A stretch of DNA of 64,000 nt from the NCBI GenBank assembly GCA_964631325.1, contig CAZVWJ010000002.1, forward strand, positions 5,848 through 69,847. Reading direction: 5' to 3'. Shown one piece after another: positions 1,025 to 49,488 of this stretch. Origin of the DNA: an uncultured bacterium (GTDB taxonomy: Bacteria; T1Sed10-126). Within the stretch, counting starts at the first letter, position 1. Each line of letters starts with the position of its first letter. The position numbers and the translations under genes were made by a program. A model generated the notes under the pieces. That model made no database searches and had not been told where the DNA came from. It worked only from the letters and a program-made list of their open reading frames with translations.

Positions 1025-1134
1025 TAAATACGAAAAATATATTTTTTCGCGAAAAAATTTAGTGAGTTCACTGCAAAAAACTTATTATGTCATTTCAACG
1101 AAAACCGGGAGCCAGAGGATGGCCTTAAAACAAT

Positions 1135-1195: not shown

Positions 1196-1200
1196 GCTCA

Positions 1201-3768: not shown

Positions 3769-3825
3769 CCCCGGATTGTAATTGGTTAATATATGTAAAT
3801 CACAAATGATTTTGAGTCAAGGTAC

Positions 3826-3866
3826 AAAAAAAACGCCGGCCCCGGTTTTCCGGAGCCGGCTTTTGG
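3826..3866 (-). terminator. Rho-independent (bidirectional) terminator downstream of the hydantoinase gene
   Basis: AAAAAAAA-cGCCGGCCCCGG-tttt-CCGGAGCCGGC-TTTTgg: a GC-rich 11-bp stem (one mismatch) flanked by an A-run and a T-run, about 85 nt past the stop at 3949. Confidence 0.55.
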
Positions 3867-3948
3867 TGGGGAAGGGCTTTTATTTATCAATTACTATTGT
3901 AGCGAGGCCAAAATAAGATGTCAAGAATTTTTTGAACTCAAGCTTCAA

Positions 3949-5355
3949 TCAATAGGCCGGGCGACCATTAGGTTTGCGGGGAATAAGCTCCCCGTGCCCT
4001 TCAATATCCTCTTGCACCTTCCCTTCAGCCACCAGAGATTTCCCGCGGCAGAACGTATATTCCGGAAAACCAAAAAGTTCCCAACCGGTGTAGGGGGACC
4101 AATCACAGTCAGTTACCAGTTTTTCCGGCTCAATTTTTATACTTTTATCCGGATCAACGACAATTAAATCCGCGTCCGAACCAACATTCAGAGAACCCTT
4201 ACGGGGATAGAGCCCATGAATTCGGGCCGGATTAGTGCTTACCTTTCGAACGACCTTATTGAGATTCCAGTTTCGCTTCCGGTAGCCGTAGGTATACAAC
4301 AGGGGGAACAGAGTCTCAGTCCCGGGTAATCCGCGGGGTATTTCCCTGAAATCTCCGTCCCAGAGATTTTTTTGTTTCCGGTTAAAGGTACAATTATCAG
4401 TAGCTACCACGTCAATGTTATTTTCTTCAAGATGTCGCCAGAGAGCCTCATTGTCCCGGGAAGTTTTTACCTGGGGGGAAGAAGCATACAGATGGCCCCC
4501 CCTCTCTTTTAACTTTTCCTCGGTTAAAGTCAAAAACTGTGGACAGGTTTCCACAAACACGTTCACTCCCCTTTCACGGGCCCGGGCCAGGGCAGTCGCT
4601 CCCTGCCGGGTAGTCAGATGCACCACATACAGGCGACCATCCACGTAGTCACAGATTTCAGCCGCCCGACGAACTGCACTGGCTTCCACAATATTGGGGC
4701 GGGCCCGGGCCAGGTCATAAGCTCCCTCATTAGCCCCATCCCGGGCTACTTTGTCGGTGAAATGACCGAGTAACTCGTCATTTTCACAATGAACACTTAT
4801 GGTTGCTCCAATTTCAGCCGCTTTTTTCATCCCTTCGAGAAGGGCCGGTTCCCCGGCCTGCCATCCTTCCTCAGAATAGATCATAAACATCTTAATTGTT
4901 GGAAAACCGGCTTCAACCAGTTCCTCCAGCTCTTCAAGGAGTTCAGGACGCCAGTGATAAACCGTGGCATGGAGACTGTAATCAATTGGGGAAAGGCCTT
5001 TGATCTGATTATTAATTTTTTGATTGATTCCGGCCAGTAAACTGCCCCCCTCCTCCTGTTCACCAAAATCGATAACCGTGGTTACACCACCGTGAGCGGC
5101 TGCTTTAGCCCCGGTCCGATAATCATCGCGAGAAGTGGTACCAAGGAGGGGGAGTTCCAGATTATAATGAACGTGGGCGTCAATTACAGCCGGCAAAACC
5201 TGTTTTCCCCGGGCATCAATTTCCCGGATAGCGGGGGAATCAAGATTTTTCTCTATAGCAACAATCTCTCCACCTTCAATTCCAATGTCCGCCGTGTAGA
5301 CCTCGTATCCGGTATAAACCTCTCCTCCACGAATTATTTTCTCAAAGGTCATCAA
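3949..5355 (-). CDS. Cyclic amidohydrolase, dihydropyrimidinase / D-hydantoinase family
   Basis: 468 aa. HxH metal motif (VIDAHVHY), carboxylated-lysine motif (TIKMFMIYS), SVHCENDE and the C-terminal beta-sandwich typical of DHPase/hydantoinase. Confidence 0.8.
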   Translation of the reverse strand: MMTFEKIIRGGEVYTGYEVYTADIGIEGGEIVAIEKNLDSPAIREIDARGKQVLPAVIDAHVHYNLELPLLGTTSRDDYRTGAKAAAHGGVTTVIDFGEQEEGGSLLAGINQKINNQIKGLSPIDYSLHATVYHWRPELLEELEELVEAGFPTIKMFMIYSEEGWQAGEPALLEGMKKAAEIGATISVHCENDELLGHFTDKVARDGANEGAYDLARARPNIVEASAVRRAAEICDYVDGRLYVVHLTTRQGATALARARERGVNVFVETCPQFLTLTEEKLKERGGHLYASSPQVKTSRDNEALWRHLEENNIDVVATDNCTFNRKQKNLWDGDFREIPRGLPGTETLFPLLYTYGYRKRNWNLNKVVRKVSTNPARIHGLYPRKGSLNVGSDADLIVVDPDKSIKIEPEKLVTDCDWSPYTGWELFGFPEYTFCRGKSLVAEGKVQEDIEGHGELIPRKPNGRPAY

Positions 5356-5362
5356 AGATCAC

Positions 5363-6724
5363 TCATTCTTCAATTTGATATTTATCGCGCTTGCTGCGGA
5401 GAGTTTTTCTTGTTATTCCAAGAGCTTCAGCAGATTTTGTAATATTACCGTCATATTCTCGAAGCGTTTTTTTAATCAACTTTTTTTCGGCTTTATCCAG
5501 GGACATCCCTGCATAAATGCTTTCACCTTTTCCACCATTTGACTCCCTCGTTTCCCTAAACAAATCAAAATCCCGGGGCTGTAATTCTTTATTTTCAGTT
5601 ACCACGGCCGCGCTTTCAAGAGCATTACGCAGTTCCCGAACGTTGCCGGGCCATTCATGAGCCATTAATAAATCGAGGGCAGAATTACTAACTCCTTCTA
5701 TCTCTTTTTCTACTTTCTTACTAATTTCCTTGAGAAAATAATCACAAAAAACAGGAATATCTTCTTTTCGTTTCCGCAGAGGTGGTATATTAATTTCAAA
5801 TACGTTAATCCGATAATACAGGTCCTCGCGAAATTTATCCTCTTCCACCAGGGATTTTATATCAGAGCTGGTTGCTGAAATCAATCGAAAATCCAGTTGA
5901 CGCGCCTTTTCTCCGCCTACGGGGATGACCTGTTGGTCCTGAAGAACCCGCAGAACTTTAGCCTGCATTTCAAAGGGCATAGCCCCAATTTCATCGAGAA
6001 ACAAAGTCCCCCCGTCCGCCAGTTCTATTTTCCCTTTTTTGTCCTCTTCGGCGCCAGTAAAAGCCCCTTTTTTATGGCCAAAAAGTTCGCTTTCCAATAA
6101 TTCAGAAGGAATGGCGGCGCAATTAACAGCAACAAAAGGTTGTTCACGCCGGGGTCCTTTGTAGTGGATTGTATTAGCAACGACTTCTTTTCCGGTTCCA
6201 CTTTCTCCCTGGATTAAAACCTGAGTTTTTGTATCTTCTACTTTTTTAATTCTGTCCTTCACCCGCTGCATAGCTTCACTTTCCCCGAGCAGGGGAGTAT
6301 GTCTAAAATTACCGCTCAAAAATGAATGTAGTTGTTGAACCTCCTCTTTCAATTCCCTGTTTTCCAGATTCTTCTCAATATGGACTTTAATTTCCTCGAG
6401 ATCAAAAGGTTTAACAATATAATCGTCAGCCCCCAGCTTAATTGCTTTTACAGCCGAGGAAACTTCCTGGTTAGCAGTAATCATAATAACAACAATTTCC
6501 GGAAATTGTTCCTGAACTTCCCGAAGTATTTCCATCCCTCCCTTACCTGGCAAACGGAGGTCAAGCAAGAGCACTTCGGGGGGCTTATCTTCAAGCGCTT
6601 CCATCCCTTCTTCCCCGTCCTGAAAAGTGACTACTTCATAGCTATCCCGAAGTGCTTCAGAAAGCAGTTGACAAATGCTGGGGTCGTCATCAATAACATA
6701 AACGGTAATTTCGTCACTCAACAA
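5363..6724 (-). CDS. Sigma-54-dependent response regulator (NtrC/AtoC family: REC + AAA+ + HTH)
   Basis: Receiver domain (VYVIDDDPSICQLL...LLDLRLPG), Walker A (GESGTGKEVVA), GAFTGA sigma-54 contact motif and C-terminal Fis-type HTH. Confidence 0.85.
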   Translation of the reverse strand: MLSDEITVYVIDDDPSICQLLSEALRDSYEVVTFQDGEEGMEALEDKPPEVLLLDLRLPGKGGMEILREVQEQFPEIVVIMITANQEVSSAVKAIKLGADDYIVKPFDLEEIKVHIEKNLENRELKEEVQQLHSFLSGNFRHTPLLGESEAMQRVKDRIKKVEDTKTQVLIQGESGTGKEVVANTIHYKGPRREQPFVAVNCAAIPSELLESELFGHKKGAFTGAEEDKKGKIELADGGTLFLDEIGAMPFEMQAKVLRVLQDQQVIPVGGEKARQLDFRLISATSSDIKSLVEEDKFREDLYYRINVFEINIPPLRKRKEDIPVFCDYFLKEISKKVEKEIEGVSNSALDLLMAHEWPGNVRELRNALESAAVVTENKELQPRDFDLFRETRESNGGKGESIYAGMSLDKAEKKLIKKTLREYDGNITKSAEALGITRKTLRSKRDKYQIEE

Positions 6725-6747
6725 TTTTCACCTAAAAACAGTGGAGG

Positions 6748-8616
6748 TCAGGTAACAACTTCTTCTTCTGACGGAAATGTTAAGCTTACTTCTGTTCCTG
6801 TCCCGGGAGCAGATTCAACTTCTATTTCCCCGGCATGTTCTTCTACTATTCTATGGGTTATAGCCATCCCAAGTCCAGAACCTTCTTCTTTAGTGGTGAA
6901 AAAAGGATTGAATAGCTTAGAACGGACTTCTTCCGGCATCCCGTCGCCGTCGTCGATAACTTTTATCTGCACAAAGCCATCTCCGATTTGTTCTGCATTA
7001 ATTTCTATATTACCACCCTTTTCAACGGCATCAATGGCATTCAGGAGAAGATTCAAAAAAACTTGCTTAAGTTTGGCTTCATCCCCGTAAATGACTAATT
7101 CTTCGGAATAATTCTGAGCCAGGGTGATTTCTTTTTTCTCCAGTTTCTTATCAATCAGCACTACCAGATCATCAATGATCGGCTGAAGTTTTACTACTTC
7201 TCGTGCTTCAACCTGGGGCCGGCCAAAGGAGAGTAAATTTTCTACCAGGGAATTAAGCCGTTCCGATTCTTTCTGAACCACTCCCGCCATTCGCTCTAAA
7301 AATTCTTCATCGTCAATTTTCCGGGGAACCATCTGGGCAAAACCATTAATGGAAGTAAGGGGGGTTTTAATTTCGTGAGCGAGACTTGAGGCCAGCTCCC
7401 CCAGGGCCGTCAACCGCTCAGTCCGGTTAATCTGCCGGTTAAGTAACCGCTGCTCCGTCACGTCGGTAAGAACCATTAAAGCTCCGGCGACCTCCCCCTC
7501 AACATTTCGGACCGAAGATCGAATCACAGAAATAACGGTGGGATGTGCACCTTTACTTTGATCCAATTCAACATCCGTAGGACCGGTCAAATCGCTATGT
7601 CTTGATTCCCGGACTATTTCTTCTAGCTGATCTGAGTTTAAATTATCCCGAATATGATCGTGGAATTCTGAAAGTTCAAGAGAATCTGATTGCAGAGAAA
7701 GTAATTCCCGGGCAACGGGATTCAACACTACTTCATCCGAATCAAGGCGAACATTTACAACTCCTACCGGTAGTTCTAACAACAATTCTTCTACGTATTC
7801 GGTCAAATTCGCAAAGTCCTGAGCAATAGAGTAGACACCGGCAAGGTTATCACAAAAGTTGGAAAGTTTATTTAACTGTTCCTGCGTGTAATAATCTTTT
7901 GCCTCGGAAGAGATATTAACAGTCCCAAAAACCTGTTCTTCCAGTCGAAAGGGAACGGAAATAAAGCTTCTAAACCCCCGGGCGGCCCGCTCACCCTCCC
8001 CCTCCTTGGGAAGGTCATTAATCAACACTCCCTTTCCCTCATTTAAAACCGACTGGATCAGGGGATCCTCCCCAATTTCAAGAGTAATTTTCTCCATATC
8101 GGAAGGAACAGCAGCCCGCAAGCGGAGTTCTTGCTCGTTTTCCTGCCAGAAAAGGCGGCAAGCATCGCAGTCAAAAATGTCATAAATAATTCCAACAAAG
8201 GACTGGAGAATACTATCCAGCCCGCGGGAGGTCTGAAGTTCTTCGGGGTTTAAACTAATTGACTCCTCAAGCTCGTACATTTCGTGGCGGGGAAAACTCA
8301 AGCCAAAACGTTTGCCGGAAGACTGCAACAAATCGACGTAACGATCCAGGAACCAGGAGAGAAATCCCCGGTAGGCTTCCGAAGTTTTCCCGGCTTTCCG
8401 GGCCGGTACAAACAGCCTCAATTCAATTTCCTCTTTGGACTGCGTAAAGGTCTGAAACTCCCCCTCCGGGGATATTTCCGATTCTTCTCCCGCACCCAGA
8501 TACAGATTCCAATCCGCCAGATCACTTTTTACCCTTGATAGAAACTCGTCGGGAGAATCTAAGTCACGCCATTCCGGAAGTTTTTTCCACATCTTAACTA
8601 TCTCAGGCGTTGGCAT
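6748..8616 (-). CDS. Sensor histidine kinase with PAS/GAF sensory region
   Basis: H-box (LAHEIKTPLTSINGFAQMV) and HATPase_c G-boxes (DDGDGMPEE, GSGLGMAITHRIVEEHAG). Start trimmed to the ATG at 8616 (MPTPEIVKMWKK) because it has a GGGAGGA RBS 6 nt upstream. The longer ORF start at 8697 runs into the intergenic repeat. Confidence 0.8.
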   Translation of the reverse strand: MPTPEIVKMWKKLPEWRDLDSPDEFLSRVKSDLADWNLYLGAGEESEISPEGEFQTFTQSKEEIELRLFVPARKAGKTSEAYRGFLSWFLDRYVDLLQSSGKRFGLSFPRHEMYELEESISLNPEELQTSRGLDSILQSFVGIIYDIFDCDACRLFWQENEQELRLRAAVPSDMEKITLEIGEDPLIQSVLNEGKGVLINDLPKEGEGERAARGFRSFISVPFRLEEQVFGTVNISSEAKDYYTQEQLNKLSNFCDNLAGVYSIAQDFANLTEYVEELLLELPVGVVNVRLDSDEVVLNPVARELLSLQSDSLELSEFHDHIRDNLNSDQLEEIVRESRHSDLTGPTDVELDQSKGAHPTVISVIRSSVRNVEGEVAGALMVLTDVTEQRLLNRQINRTERLTALGELASSLAHEIKTPLTSINGFAQMVPRKIDDEEFLERMAGVVQKESERLNSLVENLLSFGRPQVEAREVVKLQPIIDDLVVLIDKKLEKKEITLAQNYSEELVIYGDEAKLKQVFLNLLLNAIDAVEKGGNIEINAEQIGDGFVQIKVIDDGDGMPEEVRSKLFNPFFTTKEEGSGLGMAITHRIVEEHAGEIEVESAPGTGTEVSLTFPSEEEVVT

Positions 8617-8659
8617 TACAAATCCTCCCAAAAACGTCTCCTCTTTCCTGGCGGGCGAG

Positions 8660-8830
8660 GTCCTGACCTGTGCATAGACAGAGCTTGCTCTGCGCATGGA
8701 CAGGGGTTGTGGCGCGTACTCGTTATTAGAGTGAGGGGGATAAAACAGAAAGGACGTCGTAATTAACTTTATGACGTCATTTCACCCCCACCTTAATCCT
8801 CCCCCATCAAGGGGGAGGAGATTTTAGACC
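8660..8830. repeat. Intergenic structured repeat, copy B (core GCTTGCTCTGCGCATGGACAGGG ... GGCGCGTACTCGTTATTAGAGTGA ... CACCCCCA ... CTCCCCCATCAAGGGGGAG hairpin)
   Basis: Shares a conserved 5' core, middle box and 3' G5/C5 hairpin with the copies at 11210-11360 and 16535-16715. It sits between the ahcY stop and the histidine kinase start. Confidence 0.6.
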
Positions 8831-8849
8831 CTTTTTGGATGGAGTCTAA

Positions 8850-10115
8850 TTAAGTTCCCATCTGCCAGGACTCGAGGTATTCCTTCTGTTTATCCGTTAA
8901 TTCATCTATCTGAACGTCGCGAGCAGCAAGCTTCAGTTCAGCAATCCGCTCGTCGATTTCACGCGGGACAGTGTGAACGTCATGAGCCAGGTTTTCGCCC
9001 TCTGTGGCCAAATATTCCGCGGAAAGTGCCTGATTGGCAAAGGACATGTCCATAACCTCTGCCGGATGGCCTTCTGCTGCGGCCAGGTTAACCAGGCGGC
9101 CTTCAGCAAGGACGTAGACCGAACTTCCATCCTGAAGTTCAAATCTTTCCAGACTCTCTTTGATTTGAGTCCGTTCCACAGCCATCTCATCGAGATCCTC
9201 AAGATCAAGTTCCACGTTAAAATGGCCGGCATTAGCAACAATAGCTCCGTCTTTCATCTGTTTAAAGTGTTCTCCGCGGATTACAGAAATATCACCGGTA
9301 GAAGTTACGAATACATCACCAGTTTTTGCGGCTTCAGACATTGGCTTAACGTCATAACCGCTCATATGAGCTTCCAGGGCCCGCAGGGGATCAACTTCAC
9401 AGATAGTTACATTAGCCCCCATACCGTCGGCCCGCATGGCAATTCCCTGACTGCACCAACCAAAACCGGCTACAACTACGTTTTTGCCCGCCAACAAGAT
9501 ATTAGTCGCCCGCAGAATTCCGTCAATTGTGCTCTGACCGGTTCCATAGCGGTTATCAAACATATGCTTGGTTTTGGCATCGTTAACAGCGATTACCGGA
9601 AACTCCAGCACATCATTCTTCGCCATAGAACGGAGGCGAATGACGCCGGTGGTGGTTTCCTCAGTACTGCCAACCAACTGTTTAGCCAGCTCCGGTTCTT
9701 CCTGCAGAATAGTACTAACAAGATCAGCCCCGTCATCCATTGTTATCTGCGGTTCGTGATCAATTGCAGAATGGATGTGGGAATAGTAGGTCTCCTTATC
9801 TTCACCGTGGATAGCATAAACGGGGATATCGTGATTTTCCACCAGGGCGGCGGCAACATCGTCTTTAGTTGAAAGCGGGTTAGAAGCACAGAGAACAACG
9901 TCGGCCCCTCCAGCTTTCAGAGTAGTTGCCAGGTTAGCAGTTTCCGTAGTCACGTGGAGACAGCAGGACAAATTAAGCCCTTCCAGGGGTTTTTCTTTCT
10001 CAAATCTATTTTTCACCTGGGATAAAACCTGCATACTACGACCGGCCCAGTTTATATTTTTCTCACCCTCACCGGCTAAGGAAGGATCAGCAATATCACA
10101 GTGCACACTACTCAT
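8850..10115 (-). CDS. ahcY: Adenosylhomocysteinase (S-adenosyl-L-homocysteine hydrolase)
   Basis: 421 aa with [38 protein letters not shown] and the NAD-binding [34 protein letters not shown], both diagnostic for SAHH. Confidence 0.9.
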
Positions 10116-10221
10116 AACATTTCACTCCAATGAAAAAATATTTAGCTAACAAACTACCTTAATTATAACCATAAATTATACAAAAAATGTTGTTAAACTA
10201 CAGAATTCAGATTAAAACCTC

Positions 10222-10325
10222 AAAACGTCATTCCGGGCAAGGGAGGGAAACGACCGCGATCCGGAAATCAAAAAAATCAAAAAATGGATTGCCGGGTCAA
10301 GCCCGGCAATGACGTTCGTTTTGTT
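10222..10325. mobile_element. MITE/REP-like palindromic element, copy 1 (GTCATTCCGGG ... ATTGCCGGGTCAAGCCCGGCAAT ... GACG)
   Basis: Imperfect terminal inverted repeats plus an internal 23-nt perfect palindrome. Its reverse complement matches the element at 51430-51573. Confidence 0.5.
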
Positions 10326-10417
10326 CTGGATTACCGGGTTAGGCTCTGGGACGTTATACGTTCCCGGCAATGTCAAAAATATTTTACAGATTTAACTGCT
10401 GATTTACTGGTGAAAGG

Positions 10418-11161
10418 CTAAAGTTCGTTTTGTTGAAGGTATTGATCTGCTTTCTGAAGAGAATCCTTATCACCAATATCAAACCATAGACCTTCAAAAC
10501 GGTGGGCATAAACGCAGTCATTTTCAACCAACCAGGTAACATACCAACCCGGTTCATCGGGGTTACCACCCGATTTAATATAAGCCTCGAGCAAATCAAG
10601 TTTCTTTTTCGGGAACAAATACATACCCATAGCCACCAAGCTTGAGGGCGGCTCCTCGGGTTTTTCAAGAAAATCAGTTACCTCGTCTTGTTCATCAGTT
10701 GCCACAATACCGTATTTAGAAAGCTTACTCTCATCTTCAAAATCTAAAACACCGATCACGTTCTCACCGGTTTTTTTGAAAGTTTTCACCATGTCATTCA
10801 AGCTAAAATCAAATAAATTATCACCTGCTAATACAAGCAAATCATCATCAATTTCAGCTTCCTCCACAACAAATTTAATATCCCCGATTGCCCCCCGTCT
10901 TTTACCATCCTGTGTTGTTCCGTCGTTCAGAACGGTGACCGGCAGATCAGCCCCGGCGGAATCAGCCCAATTGCAAAACTTCTGGTAAAACTTATCGTTA
11001 CTCACCAGGACGATCTCCTCGACTTCAGGGACCTCTTTAATTTTTTCCACGATCAGATCCAGTATTGGTGTTCCGCCCACTTCCAACAAGGGCTTAGGAC
11101 GATCCCTGGTGAGAGGATAAAGCCTCGTCCCATACCCCGCAGCAAGCACAAGTGCTTTCAT
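10418..11161 (-). CDS. Sugar-1-phosphate nucleotidyltransferase (NTP_transferase family)
   Basis: MKALVLAAGYGTRLYPLTRDRPKPLLEVGGTPILD is the canonical G-x-G-T-R-L nucleotidyltransferase N-terminus. 247 aa. Confidence 0.75.
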   Translation of the reverse strand: MKALVLAAGYGTRLYPLTRDRPKPLLEVGGTPILDLIVEKIKEVPEVEEIVLVSNDKFYQKFCNWADSAGADLPVTVLNDGTTQDGKRRGAIGDIKFVVEEAEIDDDLLVLAGDNLFDFSLNDMVKTFKKTGENVIGVLDFEDESKLSKYGIVATDEQDEVTDFLEKPEEPPSSLVAMGMYLFPKKKLDLLEAYIKSGGNPDEPGWYVTWLVENDCVYAHRFEGLWFDIGDKDSLQKADQYLQQNEL

Positions 11162-11209
11162 CGTTTAAACCTCCTGTTTAAAACCTTGAATTCAACGTAA
11201 CTACTCACA

Positions 11210-11360
11210 TATCCTCTCTCCCCTGGTGGGGGAGAGCTTGCCCTGCGCATGGACAGGGCCAGAGAGAGGGGACTATCAACTTCTTAGTCGAAATTGTTGC
11301 GTCAAAAACCTCTTTTCACCCCCATTTTTTTCTCCATTAAGGGGGAAAAGATTAGTGAGT
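11210..11360. repeat. Intergenic structured repeat, copy C
   Basis: CTCTCCCCTGGTGGGGGAGAG hairpin, then GCTTGCCCTGCGCATGGACAGGG core, then CACCCCCA and a G5 tail. Sits between the GT4 gene start and the nucleotidyltransferase stop. Confidence 0.6.
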
Positions 11361-11406
11361 AGTTACAATTTTTAGATAAATAGAAAATCATAATCTCCAC
11401 GTGCTG

Positions 11407-12681
11407 TCAATTTTCTTCAGCGCCGGGAACCAGTTCCCGGATCAGCGGTATTATTTCTCGTTCAAAGATAGCCGGCCAGGTAAAATTCTTACGAACCCGA
11501 CGTTGCAGCAAAGTTGCTGCCTGTGATTCTATCTCTTCCCTGATATCATAGGCGATTATCGAAGGATGCTCATCCGGATCAAAATAATGGGGAGCTTCAC
11601 CGCCTACTTCCGGGAGAGGAGCAATGTCACTGCAGCAGATCAGAGTTCGACTTAAACCGGCCTCCAGCAGGGGCAAGCCAAATCCCTCCTGCCGGCTGGT
11701 TAATAACAGGATATCACTCAACCGGTAGAACTGGCGCATCCGGTTATAGCTTATCTTAAGGGGTTCACCGGTTTCAGGATCCTCAAGCTCATAACAGAAA
11801 ATTACTTCTTCCTCTAAATCTAACTTATTCCGCAACTGTTTTAACTCTTCAAAATACTCCATTGTTTCCGGGTTATGGGGATCCGGTGGCCCGGTGATAA
11901 TAAAGTGAAGGGAGTAACCCAACTTTTTTAAATGGTAAATAATTTCCAGGGCCAGTTCAAAATTTTTTCGGCGAACCACGCGAGCGGGATAAATGGCCAA
12001 GATGTCATCATAATACATTTTGTGATTGCGGTAAATACTTTTTATTGTTGAATCCAGCTCGTGGAATTCATCAAATTCTATTCCGTCGTGAACTACTTCC
12101 ACAGTAGCTTCCTGGTCAAAAACCCGGTTGAGTTGATCAGCTCTAAGGCCGGAAATAGTTATGTATTTTTCGACTTCAGCGGGTTTACCAAGGAGGTCCC
12201 AGGGATATTTATCGGGGGTCTCGTATTTATCATCAAGCCAGGCAATATCATGAGTCCAGGGAACAAATTTAAGCTCAGATTCTTCAGCCAGTTCAACCAG
12301 AGCAGCGGTAAGGGGCAAATTAAAGGGCATGGAAAAAATATTGTGGACAAGGATAAGATCCATGCCGGCCAGTGAATCCAATAAATCTTTTTTGTGGTTT
12401 GCCTTCTTTTTTTCAAAAGAAACGGTCTCATCGGATTTTAATTCCTCGCGGATGGACTCTTTACCAGGGTAATCAGAGCCAAGTTCTGTTTCCTTGTAAA
12501 CAGGAATAGACTCGTGGAATTGTTCGCCTTCCCCTACAAAAACGCTCACTTCAGCACCATACTTGTAAAGCCACCGGGCGTGAGCTTCCAGAATAAATTC
12601 TGTCCCTCCAATTACCGGCGGACAACTGTAATGCATCAAGGCAATCCGATAATTATCAAGGGAAAGATCAGTCATGGCCAA
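11407..12681 (-). CDS. Glycosyltransferase family 4 (possibly a glycosyl-glucosylglycerate synthase, cf. MggA)
   Basis: 424 aa with the C-terminal GT4 EX7E region (LTSRQEGFGLPLLEAGLSRTLICCSDIAPLPEV). Operonic with GpgS-like and histidine-phosphatase genes. Confidence 0.65.
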   Translation of the reverse strand: MAMTDLSLDNYRIALMHYSCPPVIGGTEFILEAHARWLYKYGAEVSVFVGEGEQFHESIPVYKETELGSDYPGKESIREELKSDETVSFEKKKANHKKDLLDSLAGMDLILVHNIFSMPFNLPLTAALVELAEESELKFVPWTHDIAWLDDKYETPDKYPWDLLGKPAEVEKYITISGLRADQLNRVFDQEATVEVVHDGIEFDEFHELDSTIKSIYRNHKMYYDDILAIYPARVVRRKNFELALEIIYHLKKLGYSLHFIITGPPDPHNPETMEYFEELKQLRNKLDLEEEVIFCYELEDPETGEPLKISYNRMRQFYRLSDILLLTSRQEGFGLPLLEAGLSRTLICCSDIAPLPEVGGEAPHYFDPDEHPSIIAYDIREEIESQAATLLQRRVRKNFTWPAIFEREIIPLIRELVPGAEEN

Positions 12682-12690
12682 AGCCTCTTT

Positions 12691-13302
12691 TTATGAAGAG
12701 ATTTGAACTTCCAGCACCGCTGCATTATCGGGCAGAGATTCAAGAACTTCATCAAATTCCCAGCGGCCGGCCAGGTGAGCGATCAAGCTATTAACCACCT
12801 TATGGGCCACCAGAATAATTCGATTTTCATGTTGGTTCAAAATAAAATCAAGGGCCTTCTTAATTCGGTCTTTCACCAGCCATAAAGACTCACCGGCCGG
12901 AGGACTATGAGAAATCGGGTCCTGTTTCCAGGCTCGATATTCTTCCGGAACCAGGTTATTCTCAAGACGGCTTCCGGAAAGACCATTCCAGAAGCCCTGG
13001 TCAAGTTCGTGCAAATTATTTAAAATCCAGAAGTTATCGATAGTAAGTTCCCGCTGCAAAATCGCCGCAGTCTGGCGGGCACGTCGAAGAGGGCTAACGG
13101 CCAGATCAAACGGCTTATCCGGAGGAAAATGGGTTGCCATTTCCTGACTCTGGCGGAGCCCCGTCTGATTCAGACCAATATCAACACACCCCTGGATCAA
13201 ATCCCGCTCATTCCAGAAGGTTTCCCCGTGACGGACCAGATATAACTCCATCGAAAACTTAACTTCCCCGGTCCCGTTTTTCTCGATACTGAGATAGCTC
13301 AA
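12691..13302 (-). CDS. Histidine phosphatase superfamily protein (phosphoglycerate-mutase-like; candidate glucosyl-3-phosphoglycerate phosphatase)
   Basis: LYLVRHGETFWN catalytic RHG motif. 203 aa. Lies between the GpgS-like and GT4 genes, as mycobacterial GpgP does. Confidence 0.65.
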   Translation of the reverse strand: MSYLSIEKNGTGEVKFSMELYLVRHGETFWNERDLIQGCVDIGLNQTGLRQSQEMATHFPPDKPFDLAVSPLRRARQTAAILQRELTIDNFWILNNLHELDQGFWNGLSGSRLENNLVPEEYRAWKQDPISHSPPAGESLWLVKDRIKKALDFILNQHENRIILVAHKVVNSLIAHLAGRWEFDEVLESLPDNAAVLEVQISS

Positions 13303-14251
13303 TCATAGGTGGCCTTTCTATTTCCTGGATCTGGGTTCCTTCCAGGTCATATTCTTCTCCTTCGGTATAAATCTGGTTGTAAACCCGATGTAATTCTTCC
13401 TGCAGTTTCAATTTATCAGCCGCATCCACCCGGTTAAAAAAGGTCTGGAGAATCCCAAACGCCATTTTCCCGAGCGATTGTAAGTCCTGGTTTTTGTGAA
13501 CCCGACGATCAAGATCAACCTGAGCTATTTTATCAATTCCAAATTTTTCACTAATATCAATCAGCAGTCCCGTCTCAACTCCATAGCCAATAAAAAACGG
13601 AAGTTGTTCGAGCAGCTCCCGCCGGCCGGCGTATTCACCGGAAAGGGGCTGCATCATTCCGGCCAGTTCAGGGAAGAAAAGGTTAAACAGAGGGCGCACG
13701 AGAATCTCCGTCACACGCCCCCCACCTCCAGTTCGTACTTCTTCTCCAAATTGCAATGGACGCTCATAAAAAGCTTTTACGTAACTCAGTTCATCCCTTT
13801 CCAACAGTGGGCCAACCAGACCGTAGACAAATTTCGGAGCAATATTTTTAATATCCGCATCAATATAAACAATTATATCCCCTTCCAACAAATACAGACT
13901 CTTCCATAAGTTTTCTCCCTTTCCCTGGTGGATACCCTCCTCCTGTAAATGCTCACTTGCTTTAAACACGTTGGCTCCATACTTTTTCGCTATCGCCCGG
14001 GTTCTATCCTGGGAACCACTGTCCACCACTGCTATTTCATCAATTAAATCGTGCTTTATCTTTAATTCCGTCTGGATTAAGATAATTTCCTTGCCAATAG
14101 TATCAGCTTCGTTAAGGGTTGGTAAACTAACAGTAATAGACAGGTTCTTTTCCTCTTTTAACTCAATTAACCGGTCAATATCCTGATAGCGAGAATGATG
14201 GTAAGTATTTTTATCCAGCCATTGATCAACTTTCAAATTGCTCACCTCCAA
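13259..14251 (-). CDS. GT-A fold glycosyltransferase resembling glucosyl-3-phosphoglycerate synthase (GpgS, GT81)
   Basis: 330 aa with ITVSLPTLNEADTIGKEI ... IAVVDSGSQDRTRAIA ... YIDADI (DxD), which resembles the GpgS/MpgS family more than generic GT2. Confidence 0.55.
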   Translation of the reverse strand: MEVSNLKVDQWLDKNTYHHSRYQDIDRLIELKEEKNLSITVSLPTLNEADTIGKEIILIQTELKIKHDLIDEIAVVDSGSQDRTRAIAKKYGANVFKASEHLQEEGIHQGKGENLWKSLYLLEGDIIVYIDADIKNIAPKFVYGLVGPLLERDELSYVKAFYERPLQFGEEVRTGGGGRVTEILVRPLFNLFFPELAGMMQPLSGEYAGRRELLEQLPFFIGYGVETGLLIDISEKFGIDKIAQVDLDRRVHKNQDLQSLGKMAFGILQTFFNRVDAADKLKLQEELHRVYNQIYTEGEEYDLEGTQIQEIERPPMIELSQYREKRDRGS

Positions 14252-14420
14252 CGAAGGATAAACTCCGGCACAATAAAAACAAATTTTAGCAGAAGCCTCT
14301 ATTGTATTGTCCGGGAAAATACCGTAATATGCAAGGAAAACAGGATGGATACAGTTTTTTTAGTTCTACTCAATAGCATGTATATTGGTCAATTTGAACT
14401 ACTAACCAAGTGCAAATATT

Positions 14421-15344
14421 TCACCGACCACGAGGATGATAATCCCGGTGAGAATTTCTTACTTCATCTCGTAAATGAACGTAAATATCTGCCGTAGTGC
14501 CGACATCACTGTGACCGAGCATCTTCTGTAAACTTCGCAAATCCGCCCCTCCCGCCAGCATATGAGTTGCAAACGAGTGACGCAGTGTATGAGGAGTGAC
14601 TTCGGTCAGGTTGGCCTGTTGAGCGTATTTTTTAACAATTTGCCAGATCTGCTGGCGAGTTATCTGTGTTCCTTTCCGGGTTAGAAAGAAATACTCGGAG
14701 CCGCCCGACGTCGTCCAGGTATTTCTTATCTCTCGTCCATATCTCTTTAACCACTTAAGAGCTTCACGACCAATTGGGACAATCCTCTGTTTATCTCCCT
14801 TCCCAATCACACTTAGTTCTCCACGCTCCCAATCAACACCGTTTGCTTCCAGTTCCACTGCTTCCGAAACCCGCAGACCAGCTCCGTACATTGCTTCCAG
14901 CAAAGCTCGATCACGAAGACCTGCTGACGAATCACAATCCGGCTCGTCCAATAATGACCGAACTTCTTGCTCACTTAAATAATTAGGGAAATTTTCTCCT
15001 TTTCCGGGCCGATCCATCTTTTCGACTGGATTTCCTGACATACAGTCAGTCGACGTTAAAAATGAAAAAAATTTGTGCAGGGTCGAAAGACGGCGAGAAA
15101 CTGTGCGAGGAGCGTATTCCCCCCGACGACAGTATTCAAGGAAATCTGTAATGACAAACATGTCTACTTCTTCCGGCTGTAACTCCTGTTCGCGAATAAA
15201 TCCAAAAAAATTTTTCAAGTCAGAGCAATATGAACTAACAGTATTTTCCGCCAGCCCTTCATCGACAATTAATCGTTCACGAAATTTTTGTAATAATTCC
15301 TCCCACCTGTCCTCCATCCGTAAAGAGTTATCTAGTTCAGCCAT
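14421..15344 (-). CDS. Tyrosine site-specific recombinase XerC/XerD family
   Basis: N-terminal SAM-like domain and catalytic RHR-Y box (LRVSEAVELE ... HTLRHSFATHMLAGGADLRSLQKMLGHSDVGTTADIYVHL). Confidence 0.85.
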   Translation of the reverse strand: MAELDNSLRMEDRWEELLQKFRERLIVDEGLAENTVSSYCSDLKNFFGFIREQELQPEEVDMFVITDFLEYCRRGEYAPRTVSRRLSTLHKFFSFLTSTDCMSGNPVEKMDRPGKGENFPNYLSEQEVRSLLDEPDCDSSAGLRDRALLEAMYGAGLRVSEAVELEANGVDWERGELSVIGKGDKQRIVPIGREALKWLKRYGREIRNTWTTSGGSEYFFLTRKGTQITRQQIWQIVKKYAQQANLTEVTPHTLRHSFATHMLAGGADLRSLQKMLGHSDVGTTADIYVHLRDEVRNSHRDYHPRGR

Positions 15345-16485
15345 AAATTGCTCTATCCAAAGCAGTCAGATACCCTAAAAAATAAACTAACAAAGCACCA
15401 AAAATTCCAAGGCAGACGATCATCGCCGAATGCAAACCAAAATATCCGCCCACTGGTAACGTCCGATACGGCCACAGGCCCCGAAGACAACCAACCATCA
15501 AGCCAACCAGGGCTGCCATGGTATAACTTTCATAATGATGAAGCATATAATTTAAGAATCGGGAAAACAGAAGTAATCCGCCCACCATGCCCAAACCGAA
15601 GAGAACCAGGTAAAAAGTCTCCCAACCGGGGATTACGCCGGCTATAAGCCGTGATTCGAACAGGTGGACAAGCCTGAGTATAAAGGTGTAACAACCGAGA
15701 ATCAGCAATAGATACGAACCGCTAATTCCCGGTAATATCATAGCGCATATAGCAATTGAGCCAGCAAGCAGAACATACCAGGCCGGAGGCCGGGGAATAT
15801 AAACTGTTGTTCCGGGCGGAAGTTTACTATTATCACCAGTCAGCGAATTGTTAATTTGAGCAGCAATCTCAGAATTTTTTGGAGAAGCAAGCACATTTTT
15901 TGACGGTGCAGCGGAATAATTCTGAAACAACAACGTTTCCAGGGATTTTCCTTGCGATTGCACCTTAACCCAGTTCCGGGCCTGGATGATCGTCCGATGG
16001 GGAGCGGTCACCCAGAAACCAAATAATATAAAAAATAAAATTACTCCGATTAGAAGCAGACGGCGATAAGAAGCTGCAAACTCAACCCGCTGAAGCGGAA
16101 TCCAGACACTGCCCACAATCAGCCCAAAGAAAAACCCCCGAACCATCGCCGGATATTCTTGCATCAGGGCGGGAATAACAGCGCTACCCACACTGATTGC
16201 CGAAAATATCCCCGCTCCAAGCACCAGAAAGAAAAAAACTTTAAGCTGTTTTGCTTTCCCGACCAGCCGCGATAAAAACGGACTACTCCAATCGAACAAA
16301 GTCTTAAAAAAACGTTTCAACCATTGCAGGTCAAGCGAACTAAGGGCCTCAATTAATTCTCGATAAATTCCCAGAACCAAGGCCATAGTTCCCCCGCTTA
16401 CCCCGGGAATAACATCGGCTGCCCCCATGCAAATCCCCTTTAAATAAAGCAAGAACCAGTCGAACAAATTTCTATCTTTGGCCAT
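15337..16485 (-). CDS. DUF368 family membrane protein (polyprenyl-phosphate translocase PopT-like)
   Basis: Two repeats of the DUF368 motif (ADVIPGVSGGTMALVLGIY and MILPGISGSYLLLILGCY) in a polytopic membrane protein. Start set at the ATG at 16485 (MAKDRNLF) because the longer ORF extends into the intergenic repeat. Confidence 0.7.
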   Translation of the reverse strand: MAKDRNLFDWFLLYLKGICMGAADVIPGVSGGTMALVLGIYRELIEALSSLDLQWLKRFFKTLFDWSSPFLSRLVGKAKQLKVFFFLVLGAGIFSAISVGSAVIPALMQEYPAMVRGFFFGLIVGSVWIPLQRVEFAASYRRLLLIGVILFFILFGFWVTAPHRTIIQARNWVKVQSQGKSLETLLFQNYSAAPSKNVLASPKNSEIAAQINNSLTGDNSKLPPGTTVYIPRPPAWYVLLAGSIAICAMILPGISGSYLLLILGCYTFILRLVHLFESRLIAGVIPGWETFYLVLFGLGMVGGLLLFSRFLNYMLHHYESYTMAALVGLMVGCLRGLWPYRTLPVGGYFGLHSAMIVCLGIFGALLVYFLGYLTALDRAIYG

Positions 16486-16534
16486 AGATTGTCTCCTTAA
16501 TTTTTTGGTAAGATTCAAAACTTCAAAATATATC

Positions 16535-16715
16535 TCCTCTCCCCCGGTGGGAGAGGGCTTGCCCTGCACATGGACAGGGCTTATGGCGCATACGCGTTAT
16601 TAAGGTGAACGGGGGAATCCTACCTGAAGCAGGAGGAAAAGGCTCTGAAAACCTTTTTTTACCCCCATCTGTGTCTTCCCCCATCAGGGGGAAGAGTTTG
16701 TAGAGGGAACTCACC
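16535..16715. repeat. Intergenic structured repeat, copy D
   Basis: CTCTCCCCCGGTGGGAGAGGG hairpin, then GCTTGCCCTGCACATGGACAGGG, GGCGCATACGCGTTATTAAGGTGA, ACCCCCA and the CTTCCCCCATCAGGGGGAAG hairpin. Lies between the pcm stop and the DUF368 start. Confidence 0.6.
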
Positions 16716-16757
16716 CCATCGAGAGGGAAAAATTATTTTGAAGTTCTGGGTAAAATT

Positions 16758-17429
16758 TTAACTATCCCAACCATGTTTACCAACCAGAGGAACGAAAACG
16801 CAGGAAATGGAACTGCGAGTTTGAAATTCACCGGGGGCGGTCTTAGTTACTACTTTCAATTGCTGGGATTGACGGCCACCCACGGGAATTACCAGCCGGC
16901 CACCGGAAACGAGCTGGCGCTTGAGAGGAGGCGGCACGGCAGGGGACGCAGCAGTAACCAGAATTCGTTCATAAGGAGCCGCATCCGACCAGCCTTCAGT
17001 ACCATCGCCTACATGAATGTCTACATTTTTCCCCAGGTTCACATTATCTAAATTAGCCCGAGCTGTTTTGGCAAGGGAGGATTTTTTTTCTATGGTGTGA
17101 ACATGGGCTTCCATTTGTGCCAAGATAGCACTCTGATATCCTGAACCGGTGCCAATTTCAAGCACTTTCATTCCTTTTTCCGGTTCCAGCAACTGGGTCA
17201 TCAAAGCCACAATATACGGTTGTGAAATTGTCTGACCTCCCCCGATCGGAAGCGCCCTGTCGGCATAAGCCACCCTCCAATTTTCCGCCGGAACAAATTG
17301 TTCCCGGGGGACTTTTCTGAACGCAGCAAGTATTTGAGAATCATGAATATCCCGGCGAGCCAAATCTTCCCGGACCATTTTCTTACGTTTTTCGACAAAA
17401 TCTCGGTCCGCGGGCTGAAAGGAGGTCAC
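16758..17429 (-). CDS. pcm: Protein-L-isoaspartate O-methyltransferase
   Basis: ALPIGGGQTISQPYIVALMTQLLEP...VLEIGTGSGYQSAILAQM SAM-binding motifs. 223 aa. Confidence 0.85.
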   Translation of the reverse strand: MTSFQPADRDFVEKRKKMVREDLARRDIHDSQILAAFRKVPREQFVPAENWRVAYADRALPIGGGQTISQPYIVALMTQLLEPEKGMKVLEIGTGSGYQSAILAQMEAHVHTIEKKSSLAKTARANLDNVNLGKNVDIHVGDGTEGWSDAAPYERILVTAASPAVPPPLKRQLVSGGRLVIPVGGRQSQQLKVVTKTAPGEFQTRSSISCVFVPLVGKHGWDS

Positions 17430-19459
17430 GGAAGAAGATAGCCACCCGAAAAACGGTAAATTACGTCAAGGTAATGAAACGAATATTCAAATTTACGCCA
17501 GGCTCCACTTTCGAGAGCATTAAGGGGACTACGGTAAACGGTGGTATAGTGGTGCTGAAGAGTTCTGTTGTAATTCTGCCAGACCTGACCGGTGGAGAGA
17601 TTACTAAAGTTCATATAGAGGGTATTACCGTGAGATAAAAGAGGAGAGGAGGATGACATTTTACTGATTGAGGGATTAATTATTGTGAGAGGAAGACCGT
17701 TGTTTCTTAACCGCCTGGCCAACCGGTTAAACTGAGAGCCTTCGTTATCTATTCGAGTAGAGACAACAATAATCCCAGTCGGTCCTCGACGCCGAAAAGC
17801 TCCGTTAACAGTTCGATGTAAATAATTTCTCAATTGGACCGGGTCAAACTTTTTTCCTTTTTTATAAGGATGCATAGAATTAAGCCGGTTCCTTAGCTTA
17901 ATCTTTGAACCGGTCATTGGAGCTACCACGAAATTATTCTCTGAATAAACTTTCCAGATGGTTCCCTCAGTATCATCCGGGGCCCGGGTAATTAACTTTT
18001 CAATAAATGGCCGTATCTCATCCCACCGTTCCCGAGATTTAAAACAGTTGTCCACAAGAATAATCCAACCCGGCGTGTAATAGGAGCGGGTTTTACGAAG
18101 GTAACTTGGCAAAGCCTCAAATCCCTCCACTTTAATTCCCAGGTTATTATCGCTTAAATGCTGAAACCGACTGCTTCTCAGGGGATCTCTGAGCAAAAGG
18201 TTCATCCGAATAACCGGATAATCTTCGAACTGAGTTCTCCGAGATTGAACTAAAATATCGGGGGCGGCCGTCTTTTGGGGCCGATAAATCAAGATGTTGC
18301 TGTCTTTGAATCGAGAAATAATCAATCTATCCCCGCTGAACAGACAATCAGAAATATCCTCACCGGGAATAATTTCTCCCCGATCCCTAAGGTAAAGTGG
18401 TTTTTCCCCGGGAGTATATTTCATGAAACCATTTTCACCCCCGGCAAAAAGCTCTCCCTGTCTCCACCAGAGTTTCCGAATCCCCAGCCCCGGATCAACC
18501 TCAATCTCTCGCAACCGTTTACCGGCAGTATTTACTATAATAATCCTATTGTTATTAAGATCCAATAGCCAGAATTTTCCTGCAGGACTCAACGCCAAGT
18601 CATCAATTCGAACCAGCGGTGGAGGTTTCCAGACCCGGCCCAGCGTATCCCCACGGCTGGTCAACTGATAAATCTCATCGGACCCGTCATTAAAAACATA
18701 AACCTGTTGGTTTTGAGTGAACAATTCGTAGGGAGCATTTACACCGGCCCTGGCAAATGGAACTACCGCTCCCGTATCAGTAATCAGCCGAATTCGATCG
18801 CCACCGAATTCGGCTACCAAAAGTCCCTTCCCGGAAAGATAAGAGAGAGCAGCCGGTTTTTCAAAATTATACCACTGGTTTAGCAACTTCCCCTCTTCAC
18901 TATAATAAAGGACTTTATTCATTCGAAAAGAAGCGGTGTAAAACCCCCCCCCGGGATTATTCGTCAGGGCAATCGGGTTCACGTTTCTATTTTTGCCCAG
19001 GACCTTCCCCTTAATTCCACTAACAAAATTCCAGTTCTTCAGATCAGAAATTTGCGGGGGATTATAACTTAATTGATGCAAGTTCAAGACCCGTGAAAAC
19101 CACTTTTGTTTAGCTCCGGTAAGCATTTTTCCGGGGCGCCAGGTTTTTACAGCAGAGTCATTATAGCCAAGGGCGTAATAAACTTTTCCCAGCCAAAAAC
19201 GAGCCCTCATATAGGAGGTATCGGACTGTAAAGCCGCTTCGAACCGCCGGCGTGCAGTCTCCAGATCTCCGTCCCGATGATAGGCATTATAACCGAATTG
19301 GAATTGGGTAGAGGTATCGCCCCCCCGGAGAGGGGGAGTGTCAGGGGCTTCAGGGGAAGTATCCGCCGTTTGAGCCCACAGCGGGGTAGAAACAGCGAAG
19401 GTAGCTATAACAACAACTATGACAACAAGAAATGAAAGCTTTAAACTTTTTGAGCCCAT
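17426..19459 (-). CDS. Secreted hypothetical protein (signal peptide, TPR-like N-terminal region, beta-propeller-like middle, possible vWA-like C-terminus)
   Basis: 677 aa. N-terminal hydrophobic leader ending at the AQ cleavage site. No catalytic motif recognised. Confidence 0.45.
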   Translation of the reverse strand: MGSKSLKLSFLVVIVVVIATFAVSTPLWAQTADTSPEAPDTPPLRGGDTSTQFQFGYNAYHRDGDLETARRRFEAALQSDTSYMRARFWLGKVYYALGYNDSAVKTWRPGKMLTGAKQKWFSRVLNLHQLSYNPPQISDLKNWNFVSGIKGKVLGKNRNVNPIALTNNPGGGFYTASFRMNKVLYYSEEGKLLNQWYNFEKPAALSYLSGKGLLVAEFGGDRIRLITDTGAVVPFARAGVNAPYELFTQNQQVYVFNDGSDEIYQLTSRGDTLGRVWKPPPLVRIDDLALSPAGKFWLLDLNNNRIIIVNTAGKRLREIEVDPGLGIRKLWWRQGELFAGGENGFMKYTPGEKPLYLRDRGEIIPGEDISDCLFSGDRLIISRFKDSNILIYRPQKTAAPDILVQSRRTQFEDYPVIRMNLLLRDPLRSSRFQHLSDNNLGIKVEGFEALPSYLRKTRSYYTPGWIILVDNCFKSRERWDEIRPFIEKLITRAPDDTEGTIWKVYSENNFVVAPMTGSKIKLRNRLNSMHPYKKGKKFDPVQLRNYLHRTVNGAFRRRGPTGIIVVSTRIDNEGSQFNRLARRLRNNGLPLTIINPSISKMSSSSPLLSHGNTLYMNFSNLSTGQVWQNYNRTLQHHYTTVYRSPLNALESGAWRKFEYSFHYLDVIYRFSGGYLLP

Positions 19460-20202
19460 TTGGAATCAGGGTATCTTTCCTTGAGAAATTTATAGAATTT
19501 TTGGGCGCGGTCCGAATCATTCAAATACTGTTTACAAATATTGCCGGCTCCATACAAAACCTCCGGAGCTCGCCGGGATTCGGGAAATTTATCAATGAAC
19601 TTCCGGGCTATTTTAAGGGCCAGGTTAAATTCATCCACTCGCTGATAAAGTACATACAACCGGTAGTTTGCTTCCGCCCGGATCGACTGGCGGCTGGTTT
19701 GATTAACTATTTGCTGGAGCCCCACCACTACCCGATCAAACTTGCCGTCATTTAGCAATTCTCGAAGGCGGGTAAAATCAGGATCATCCGGGTTAACCTG
19801 CAGGTCCGAGCCAGATTGTGAGGTGCGGAGGGAAGCATTCCCAGAAGTGAGACGGTCCTTATTAAAATAAATCCAGGCAGCAGTCCCCCCCATACCCACA
19901 AGTAGACCTACCAGGGTTAATATTAAAAAAATTTGCCAGGAAAGGGGGGAAGAAGAACTATTGGAAGAGGAGCCAACTTCTTTAACCGTTTTCTTTTCTT
20001 CTGATGAGAAAGTCTCGGAAAAGGAATCATTCCGAGGCGGCAGATGTTCCCGACAGCGTCCGTGGTCTTTACTAATTGGCCATTTCTGACAGGGCCCACC
20101 CGAACCAGTGGGAACCCCACAAATTTCTCGGTCTAACTTTGACTCTATGGCTTCGATTTTCTCAATATATTCTTCGGGCCAATCGTCCCTGATTTTAGCC
20201 AA
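19441..20202 (-). CDS. Membrane-anchored TPR-like protein with N-terminal Cys cluster
   Basis: 253 aa. Cytoplasmic CGVPTGSGGPCQKW...HGRCREH Cys/His cluster, a single TM helix (IFLILTLVGLLVGMGG) and a periplasmic TPR/YbgF-like C-terminus. Confidence 0.45.
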   Translation of the reverse strand: MAKIRDDWPEEYIEKIEAIESKLDREICGVPTGSGGPCQKWPISKDHGRCREHLPPRNDSFSETFSSEEKKTVKEVGSSSNSSSSPLSWQIFLILTLVGLLVGMGGTAAWIYFNKDRLTSGNASLRTSQSGSDLQVNPDDPDFTRLRELLNDGKFDRVVVGLQQIVNQTSRQSIRAEANYRLYVLYQRVDEFNLALKIARKFIDKFPESRRAPEVLYGAGNICKQYLNDSDRAQKFYKFLKERYPDSKWAQKV

Positions 20203-49457: not shown

Positions 49458-49488
49458 TTATATTTTTCTTTTGTCAGGATAAATATTT

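Follow-up and report, generated by a model that had tools for sequence, protein, structure and literature searches.

A modular, hairpin-rich intergenic repeat, probably a small non-autonomous mobile element, in the operons of an uncultured bacterium

Bacterial interspersed mosaic elements (BIMEs) of enterobacteria are modular mosaic repeats. Repetitive extragenic palindromic (REP) sequences are imperfect palindromes of 20-40 nt which carry a GTAG-like 5' tetranucleotide, occur in tens to hundreds of copies and have an associated REP-associated tyrosine transposase (RAYT). REP sequences and REP doublets (REPINs), as well as palindrome elements derived from the insertion sequences (IS) IS200/IS605, are mobilised by HUH Y1 transposases; the REP- and IS200/IS605-derived elements usually generate no target duplication. 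IS1397 and ISKpn1 insert in REP loops. Mosaic composition is also a feature of the modular BOX elements of Streptococcus pneumoniae (PMC3049150). Miniature inverted-repeat transposable elements, abbreviated MITEs, are small and intergenic, form stable stem-loops, and occur as size variants and truncated copies (PMC10969869); examples are Correia/CREE of Neisseria, QMITE of Coxiella and Chunjie of Geobacter (PMC10969869, PMC3184786, PMC2229807). IS1111 inserts in the palindrome of QMITE2 (PMC10969869). Here we describe a repeat family found in a 64-kb stretch of DNA from an uncultured bacterium (GTDB lineage T1Sed10-126; assembly GCA_964631325.1, contig CAZVWJ010000002.1, positions 5,848 to 69,847). 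This whole stretch is referred to as the window; the family is known from it only, and all coordinates are positions in it. The element has not been described previously, yet it is a member of the ordinary class of small structured intergenic repeats. It is probably a lineage-specific, non-coding, modular and non-autonomous DNA repeat of the kind represented by MITEs, BOX, enterobacterial repetitive intergenic consensus (ERIC) sequences, Correia elements and BIMEs.

The repeat family is real and far beyond chance. A 23-nt core, GCTTGCYCTGCRCATGGACAGGG, is present in exact form three times on the plus strand (8683-8705, 11236-11258 and 16557-16579), while 100 dinucleotide-preserving shuffles contained no match to it with three mismatches tolerated. 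Two profiles were searched with nhmmer (option --max), one comprising the 5' module (hairpin H1, core and box) and the other the 3' module (C-box, hairpin H5 and tail). The 5' profile retrieved three copies (E values of 1e-14 to 1e-26) and the 3' profile four, including one at 1142-1204 (E values of 1e-10 to 1e-15), and neither revealed further loci in the window. The family consists of three full copies and one 3' fragment (1140-1204). An initial annotation of the window had proposed a family with a conserved core and a degenerate fragment near 1135-1195; the former was confirmed by direct reading, shuffles and nhmmer, and the latter was recovered with the 3' profile. Copies are 144-193 bp long, or 170-233 bp if their outer arms are counted. 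Their coding capacity is nil, and the open reading frames (ORFs) that run across them are spurious. The spacers holding full copies fold far better than shuffled sequences on both strands (z-scores of -4.9 to -7.1), values for the minus strand including -6.4 and -7.1.

Relatives were identified by a search with AhcY (89% and approximately 81% identity), and four of them with syntenic gene order were compared with the window: a Logan assembly (L026), GCA_964566495.1 (L027), GCA_003554945.1 together with JGI samples (L029-31; the record name SL_8KL_010_SED in this group points to soda-lake sediment) and GCA_003557545.1 (L032). Gene order is conserved in these relatives. None of the orthologous counterparts covered in L026, L027, L029-31 and L032 (eleven spacers, representing all three sites) contains the element; four of the eleven measure just 0-85 nt, and seven carry unrelated sequence. 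The spacer between pcm and the DUF368 gene comprises 272 nt in the window and 15 nt in L032, and the two genes overlap in L027. Between ahcY and a histidine kinase gene there are 235 nt in the window, against 57 nt for L029 and 84 nt for L032; L026 (271 nt, with a terminator-like hairpin of its own) and L027 (348 nt) carry unrelated sequence at this position. The third spacer, located between the genes for a glycosyltransferase and an NTP-transferase, measures 245 nt in the window and 61 nt in L032. In L026 this interval is 128 nt long and unrelated in sequence, and a distinct repeat family takes it up in L027 and L029. The 5' module was not found by nhmmer in approximately 85 kb of the relatives' sequence. 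A C-run/G-run hairpin resembling the 3' module is present in the relatives' spacer between the NTP-transferase gene and ahcY (L027, 9842-9874; L029, approximately 4040-4100) in an orientation opposite to the genes; with E values of 0.004-0.04 it was too weak to be accepted as a homologue. When a chimeric protein query (pcm, DUF368 and NTP-transferase) was used to find closer relatives, only distant long proteins were returned.

Searches of larger collections gave a similar result. Exact-pattern scans for the core, covering 596 Gb of GTDB genomes, JGI metagenomes and IMG/VR, identified 19 loci in GTDB species genomes, six in JGI metagenomes and six in IMG/VR. Almost all of these loci lie in apparent coding sequence, many of them in one conserved ...TLALRMDRH... 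frame, and phage genes are also represented. H1, the box and the 3' module are missing from every locus in the three collections, and the 19 GTDB loci are close in number to the approximately 17 that we estimate to arise by chance. One locus in apparently non-coding sequence (L005, 1395-1490; JBDGPJ010000132.1, 'bacterium isolate DAL-3Gt') contains an H2-like hairpin, GCCCTGCGCATGGACAGGG, flanked by an inverted repeat of 7 nt (AGTTCAA / TTGAACT); it could not be told apart from a chance 19-mer match. With blastn, the element had no match at E<=1 in 72,556 plasmids and 50,697 phages, and ARAGORN detected no tRNA; derivation from a tRNA or from a known IS end, which the initial annotation had named as grounds for abandoning its proposal, thus found no support. 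The same annotation had also regarded a lack of conservation outside the window as speaking against it, and within the collections searched no such conservation was found. Similarly, the Infernal comparison with Rfam that it had suggested did not identify a known RNA family: Rfam 15 gave no match at gathering score in the whole window, and only noise over the elements (E values of 0.9-9). A six-frame chimera of the translated modules matched nothing at E<=10 among 5.8 billion proteins, a search which is insensitive for such short matches.

On the plus strand the modules are arranged in the order H1, H2, an optional box, a variable middle segment closed by G5 and C5 runs, H5 and a tail. H1 has the form CTCTCCCC-loop-GGGGAGAG and is joined by GCTT to H2, which reads GCCCTG-CRCATGGA-CAGGGC. 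Where the box is present it can form a G.U-rich hairpin, and the C5 run that closes the middle segment sits inside a second box, CACCCCCA. H5 (CTTCCCCC-ATCA-GGGGGAAG) is followed by a tail of about 12 nt, GAGWTTNTAGAG. Instead of the three hairpins claimed initially there are more, namely H1, H2, the box hairpin, the G5/C5 middle, H5 and an outer closing stem. The ends of the copies are 80-96% identical, whereas the interiors of their middle segments are about 50% identical, which is the random level; each non-homologous middle still folds into one or more hairpins of its own.

Copy 3 (16530-16714, plus strand), located in the pcm/DUF368 spacer, is the most complete. It comprises H1 (16535-16557), core and H2 (16557-16580), box (16581-16607), the G5...C5 middle (16611-16666), H5 (16674-16695) and a tail that is common to this copy and the fragment. 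Copy 1 (8634-8826, plus strand) lies in the ahcY/histidine kinase spacer and starts at about 8634, not at 8660 as first proposed. A degenerate H1 is followed by a 22-nt tandem duplicate of the core that has degenerated (8656-8682), core and H2 (8683-8706), box (8707-8733), the G5...C5 middle (8735-8789), H5 (8797-8819) and the tail GAGATTTTAGAC. Copy 2 (11209-11354, plus strand) occupies the glycosyltransferase/NTP-transferase spacer and consists of H1 (11216-11236), core and H2 (11236-11259), a non-homologous middle, CACCCCCA and a weakened H5 (11328-11349); it has no box. The fragment, or copy 4 (1140-1204, plus strand), lacks the 5' half and the middle, and in it a partial box, ACGCGTACTCGTTA, is fused straight to a decayed H5 and the tail. 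The composition of the family is therefore a mosaic, with tandem duplication of the core in copy 1, loss of the box in copy 2 and loss of the 5' half in copy 4. Stems are broken in H1 of copy 1, in the duplicated H2 and in H5 of copy 4. Among the motifs listed in the initial annotation, the upstream hairpin reported for two copies corresponds to H1, which copies 2 and 3 carry intact and copy 1 in degenerate form. The middle box is confined to copies 1 and 3, with a piece of it in the fragment and none in copy 2, and its end, given as TTATTA[G/A]GGTGA, actually reads ...TTATTARRGTGA. The 3' box CACCCCCA exists as described, except that it reads TACCCCCA in copy 3 and is missing from the fragment. 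The flanking inverted repeats, the duplication in copy 1 and the hairpin-forming capacity of the non-homologous middles had been overlooked.

The interpretation as a small mobile repeat is favoured because a near-identical core is found in unrelated spacers and the element is absent from the orthologous sites of relatives. The same direction is indicated by the gain and loss of modules, by middles that have been replaced, by stems in partial decay and by the restriction to one lineage. The element would have spread by insertion or duplication into spacers of conserved operons in one lineage, and it presumably is, or once was, moved in trans by an enzyme whose gene lies elsewhere in the genome. 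H1 and H5, two similar subterminal hairpins, are the likely recognition sites. Given their position inside strings of co-directional minus-strand genes, the copies are probably co-transcribed in polycistronic mRNAs, where they might have merely incidental effects as a decay barrier, an RNase site or an insulator of translational coupling. The family would then represent a further case of small repeats that invade packed operons and push apart formerly overlapping genes, in this instance pcm and the DUF368 gene.

All three full copies are enclosed by an inverted repeat of their own flanking sequence (7, 12 and 15 nt), and these outer repeats are wholly different among the copies. In copy 1 the left arm CCTCCCAAAAA (8624-8634) pairs with the right arm TTTTTGGATGG (8832-8842) through a perfect core of 7 nt; the left arm overlaps the ribosome-binding site of the kinase gene and is also present in a relative's empty spacer. 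The arms of copy 2, GTAACTACTCAC (11197-11208) and GTGAGTAGTTAC (11355-11366), pair perfectly over 12 of 12 positions, and those of copy 3, CAAAACTTCAAAATA (16516-16530) and TATTTTGAAGTTCTG (16734-16748), over 14 of 15. Copy 3 further possesses a 9-nt direct repeat, with GGTAAGATT (16507-16515) preceding the left arm and GGTAAAATT (16749-16757) following the right one, which exactly abuts both arms and resembles a target-site duplication. Excision in silico of the 233-bp unit together with one repeat yields a plausible 30-nt spacer which retains the ribosome-binding site of the DUF368 gene. This configuration looks like a textbook insertion with target-site duplication. Only four of the 25 longest inverted repeats listed for the window have arms less than 250 nt apart, and these are the arms of copy 2, the arms of copy 3, a 44-nt palindrome (1202-1245) and an unrelated foldback (49269-49457). 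The closing repeats stand out statistically: we estimate the chance that a match of 12/12 or 14/15 abuts both ends to be in the order of 1e-5 per copy. An ordinary MITE family does not predict such closing repeats, as its ends are conserved and its interior varies.

The 44-nt palindrome is perfect and loopless (TAATACTCTAATACTTGAAAAA / TTTTTCAAGTATTAGAGTATTA) and directly abuts the 3' end of the fragment. It may correspond to an unoccupied version of the palindromes around the full copies. Two origins of the closing repeats are possible: (i) insertion of the element into the centre of pre-existing palindromes, or (ii) inverted duplication of the flank after insertion, via template switching at the hairpins of the element. 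The second option is weakly favoured because the short spacers of the relatives do not contain such palindromes, the relatives being too diverged for this comparison to be decisive. A different suggestion, namely that the flanking arms constitute a second repeat family with the motifs TAAYTACTC and ACTTSAAAA, was not supported. Going further, the family might be a non-autonomous mobile hairpin cluster with palindrome-coupled insertion, in the sense of either targeting or template-switched copying of the flank, and perhaps be mobilised by an HUH/Y1 enzyme via H1 and H5; we put this forward as a speculative and rather unlikely scenario. If true, palindrome-coupled insertion would build copy-specific closing stems and thereby create large structured intercistronic RNAs de novo within operons. 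Should the pattern be general in the genome, flanking inverted repeats could inform on target choice or remodelling by such elements, and also on the origin of long RNA or DNA hairpins as treated in template-switch models (PMC8794818).

Several observations weigh against a small mobile repeat. Only 3.5 copies are visible, and all of them come from one 64-kb window. No classical conserved terminal inverted repeat was found, a repeat resembling a target duplication is present in copy 3 only, and copies 1, 2 and 4 have no flanking direct repeat above shuffle level. A Pfam search of 30 window proteins pointed to housekeeping functions and did not reveal a transposase domain. The relatives are 81-89% identical in AhcY, so the absence of the element from them is undatable, and there is no clean empty site among them. 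The four copies all face the same way with respect to the genes, for which the chance is 1/8 if either orientation is counted and 1/16 for this particular one. Finally, H5 of copies 1 and 3 differs by a clean double change from C-G to T-A, more such changes are found in copy 2, and H1 of copy 3 is a perfect, register-shifted version of H1 of copy 2. These stem-preserving double changes could reflect selection on structure; they were judged from three sequences, a number that permits no meaningful statistic. Maintenance of hairpins would also be expected if H1 and H5 served as recognition hairpins of an HUH/Y1 transposase (IS200/IS605, RAYT), and equally so under homogenisation by template switching (PMC8794818).

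The uniform orientation and the preserved stems bear on an alternative in which the element is a functional, cis-acting minus-strand RNA module of polycistronic mRNA, involved in differential stability, in processing by RNase III/E or in translational uncoupling. We consider such a module unlikely. Its presence between co-directional genes, in one orientation in all copies, is what would be anticipated for it, but the flanking genes are functionally unrelated, modules were gained or lost between copies, and none of the orthologous spacers in the four relatives contains the element. Strong folding of the minus strand, with the z-scores of -6.4 and -7.1, and the variable middles that still form hairpins would suit an RNA function as well, as would the closing stem of copy 1, which takes in the Shine-Dalgarno sequence of the kinase gene. 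The few stem-preserving changes in H5 and H1, on the other hand, stand beside decayed stems in copies 1 and 4 and beside loops that are as conserved as the stems, as recent common descent alone predicts. The G.U asymmetry is contradictory: in copies 1 and 2 and in the box hairpin it favours the plus strand, in copy 4 the minus strand. A terminator or attenuator role was rejected, given that no copy has a U-tract comparable to those of real terminators in the window; H1 of copy 3 on the minus strand alone scores as a terminator, with a weak tail. Canonical terminators with long T-runs are found elsewhere in the window (3860..3835 and 10310..10288), and in its total of terminator-like sites the interval 1-20000 does not exceed shuffles. 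The statement that the GC-rich hairpins are not classical terminators was therefore correct.

As several stems and the box hairpin pair better on the plus strand owing to G.U pairs, we also considered small RNA (sRNA) genes antisense to the operons. Here H5 and the ensuing U-stretch (UUUU, UUUGU or UUUCU in copies 1, 3 and 4) would serve for termination, and H2, with A-N-GGA in its AUGGA loop, would offer a possible CsrA-type site. The U-tracts are, however, much weaker than those of genuine terminators such as 3860..3835 with its eight T, and a scan for promoter-like sites upstream of the copies on the plus strand detected none. With the entire 5' half missing from copy 4, no conservation in relatives and no Rfam match, sRNA genes are highly improbable. 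The initial annotation had offered three candidates, a repeated cis-regulatory RNA, an sRNA family and a novel repeated extragenic element. The last of these is upheld. The first two are unsupported because the element is absent from the relatives' spacers and has no match in Rfam, and because neither a consistent promoter or terminator nor a consistent G.U strand signal was found.

Pfam assignments of the neighbouring genes agreed with the gene context given initially: AdoHcyase and a GAF-HisKA kinase for copy 1, Glycos_transf_1 and NTP_transferase for copy 2, PCMT and the VCA0040-like family (DUF368) for copy 3, and a glycosyltransferase and an MshEN/PilB-like protein for the fragment. The spacer of the fragment, at about 640 nt, is not short as had been stated. 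Homologues of the kinase and of the DUF368 protein start at the equivalents of 8614 and 16485, with a good ribosome-binding site at either start. As noted earlier, the ORF at 16523-16714 is an artefact, and the same holds for the N-terminal extensions of the kinase and DUF368 ORFs. For annotation purposes, masking of the repeats is advisable in this lineage because they create false ORFs and N-terminal extensions. The repeats themselves are unlikely to be an assembly artefact, as the copies differ from one another and sit in intact operons.

The cluster of copies includes a gene of the Phage_integrase family (14421-15344), and conserved ends combined with variable, hairpin-forming centres between co-directional genes are reminiscent of attC. 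We also considered that the copies might be recombination or protein-binding sites at the DNA level, attC-like, with this tyrosine recombinase gene as a possible partner. Relatives without the element nevertheless have the recombinase, which is of XerC/D-like architecture, in a syntenic position, and the neighbours are housekeeping genes in conserved order rather than cassettes. Moreover, the conserved parts fold on themselves, with no R''/L'' pairing to L'/R', and no GTTRRRY core was seen at the ends by reading the sequence only. DNA-level sites of this type are very unlikely, and integron attC sites in particular were rejected on the grounds of synteny and architecture.

Additional features of the gene neighbourhood were noted. 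The minus strand carries nearly all genes in 1-37.8 kb, which overlap or follow each other closely, and every 4-kb bin of the window shows a negative GC skew for the plus strand; skew and gene orientation would agree with the minus strand as the leading strand. Compared with L027 and L029, the window has two extra genes (1514-3768) between the amidohydrolase and the MshEN/PilB-like genes, encoding a GT4 glycosyltransferase (1514-2659) and a 370-aa ORF product (2656-3768). This local insertion adjoins the fragment.

The window also contains other repeats and structures. A second intergenic repeat family is common to the window (10222-10313 and, inverted, 51456-51556) and the relatives (L027, 8790-8950 and 9760-9805; L029, 2990-3150, 3970-4015 and 4100-4130), where it fills the glycosyltransferase/NTP-transferase and NTP-transferase/ahcY spacers. 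One of its modules is of the type GTCATTCC...GGAATGAC, and the other, GGATTGCCGGNNCAAGNCCGGCAATGAC, is a hairpin followed by a T-run which scores as an intrinsic terminator (10310..10288, minus strand). An AT-rich inverted repeat pair of 51 nt with 84% identity is located in two intergenic regions (37980-38030 and 51386-51436), and one of its copies adjoins a copy of the second family. Upstream of an outer-membrane beta-barrel gene (49489-50310) there is a near-perfect foldback of about 190 nt (49262-49464) with outer arms of 21 nt (49269-49289 / 49437-49457), a minimum free energy of -83.6 kcal/mol (z-score of -9.65) and nothing matching it in Rfam. This foldback is possibly a further MITE-like element or a structured RNA not yet known. 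Finally, a 2353-aa ORF (42140-49201) harbours four internal DNA repeats of about 1.3-1.4 kb (43664-48045; 63-78% identity) and shorter, 44-nt periodic repeats (42632-43314); its product is probably a large repetitive surface protein.

With respect to known systems, the family shares with MITEs a small size (about 150-230 bp here, compared with about 50-500 bp for MITEs in general), the lack of coding capacity, multiple copies, an intergenic location that is often within transcription units, and very stable predicted folds. Size variants, truncated copies and presence or absence among related genomes are likewise common to both, the latter being observed here without a clean empty site, and one copy has a 9-bp direct repeat. 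Unlike MITEs, the family has no shared terminal inverted repeat. Its conserved parts are internal self-folding hairpins, and H1 and H5 are self-complementary and merely resemble each other instead of forming shared ends of the MITE type. The element is rich in G and C runs rather than AT-rich, and no parent IS is known. The resemblance to BOX elements and BIMEs lies in the small number of modules that are duplicated or missing depending on the copy, and in hairpin-rich, intergenic and co-transcribed units that do not encode an enzyme of their own; differences are the absence of sequence similarity, the non-homologous middle and the apparent confinement to one uncultured lineage. Two similar subterminal hairpins of the same orientation (H1 and H5), the lack of classical terminal inverted repeats and the single orientation of the copies recall REP/REPIN and IS200/IS605-derived elements. 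Within the window, neither a RAYT nor a TnpA gene was seen, nor any conserved target tetranucleotide. In agreement with the initial annotation the element does not look like an ordinary REP of 20-40 nt, since it is much longer and has no GTAG-type motif; H1 and H5 are REP-sized but embedded in a longer conserved unit. In comparison with palindrome-targeting IS, the flanking palindromes do not form a repeat family and were not seen in the relatives' spacers, and the element carries no transposase. What it has in common with these IS is that each full copy is centred in a copy-specific inverted repeat, as if inserted in the loop of a palindrome, and that an uninterrupted 44-nt palindrome adjoins the fragment.

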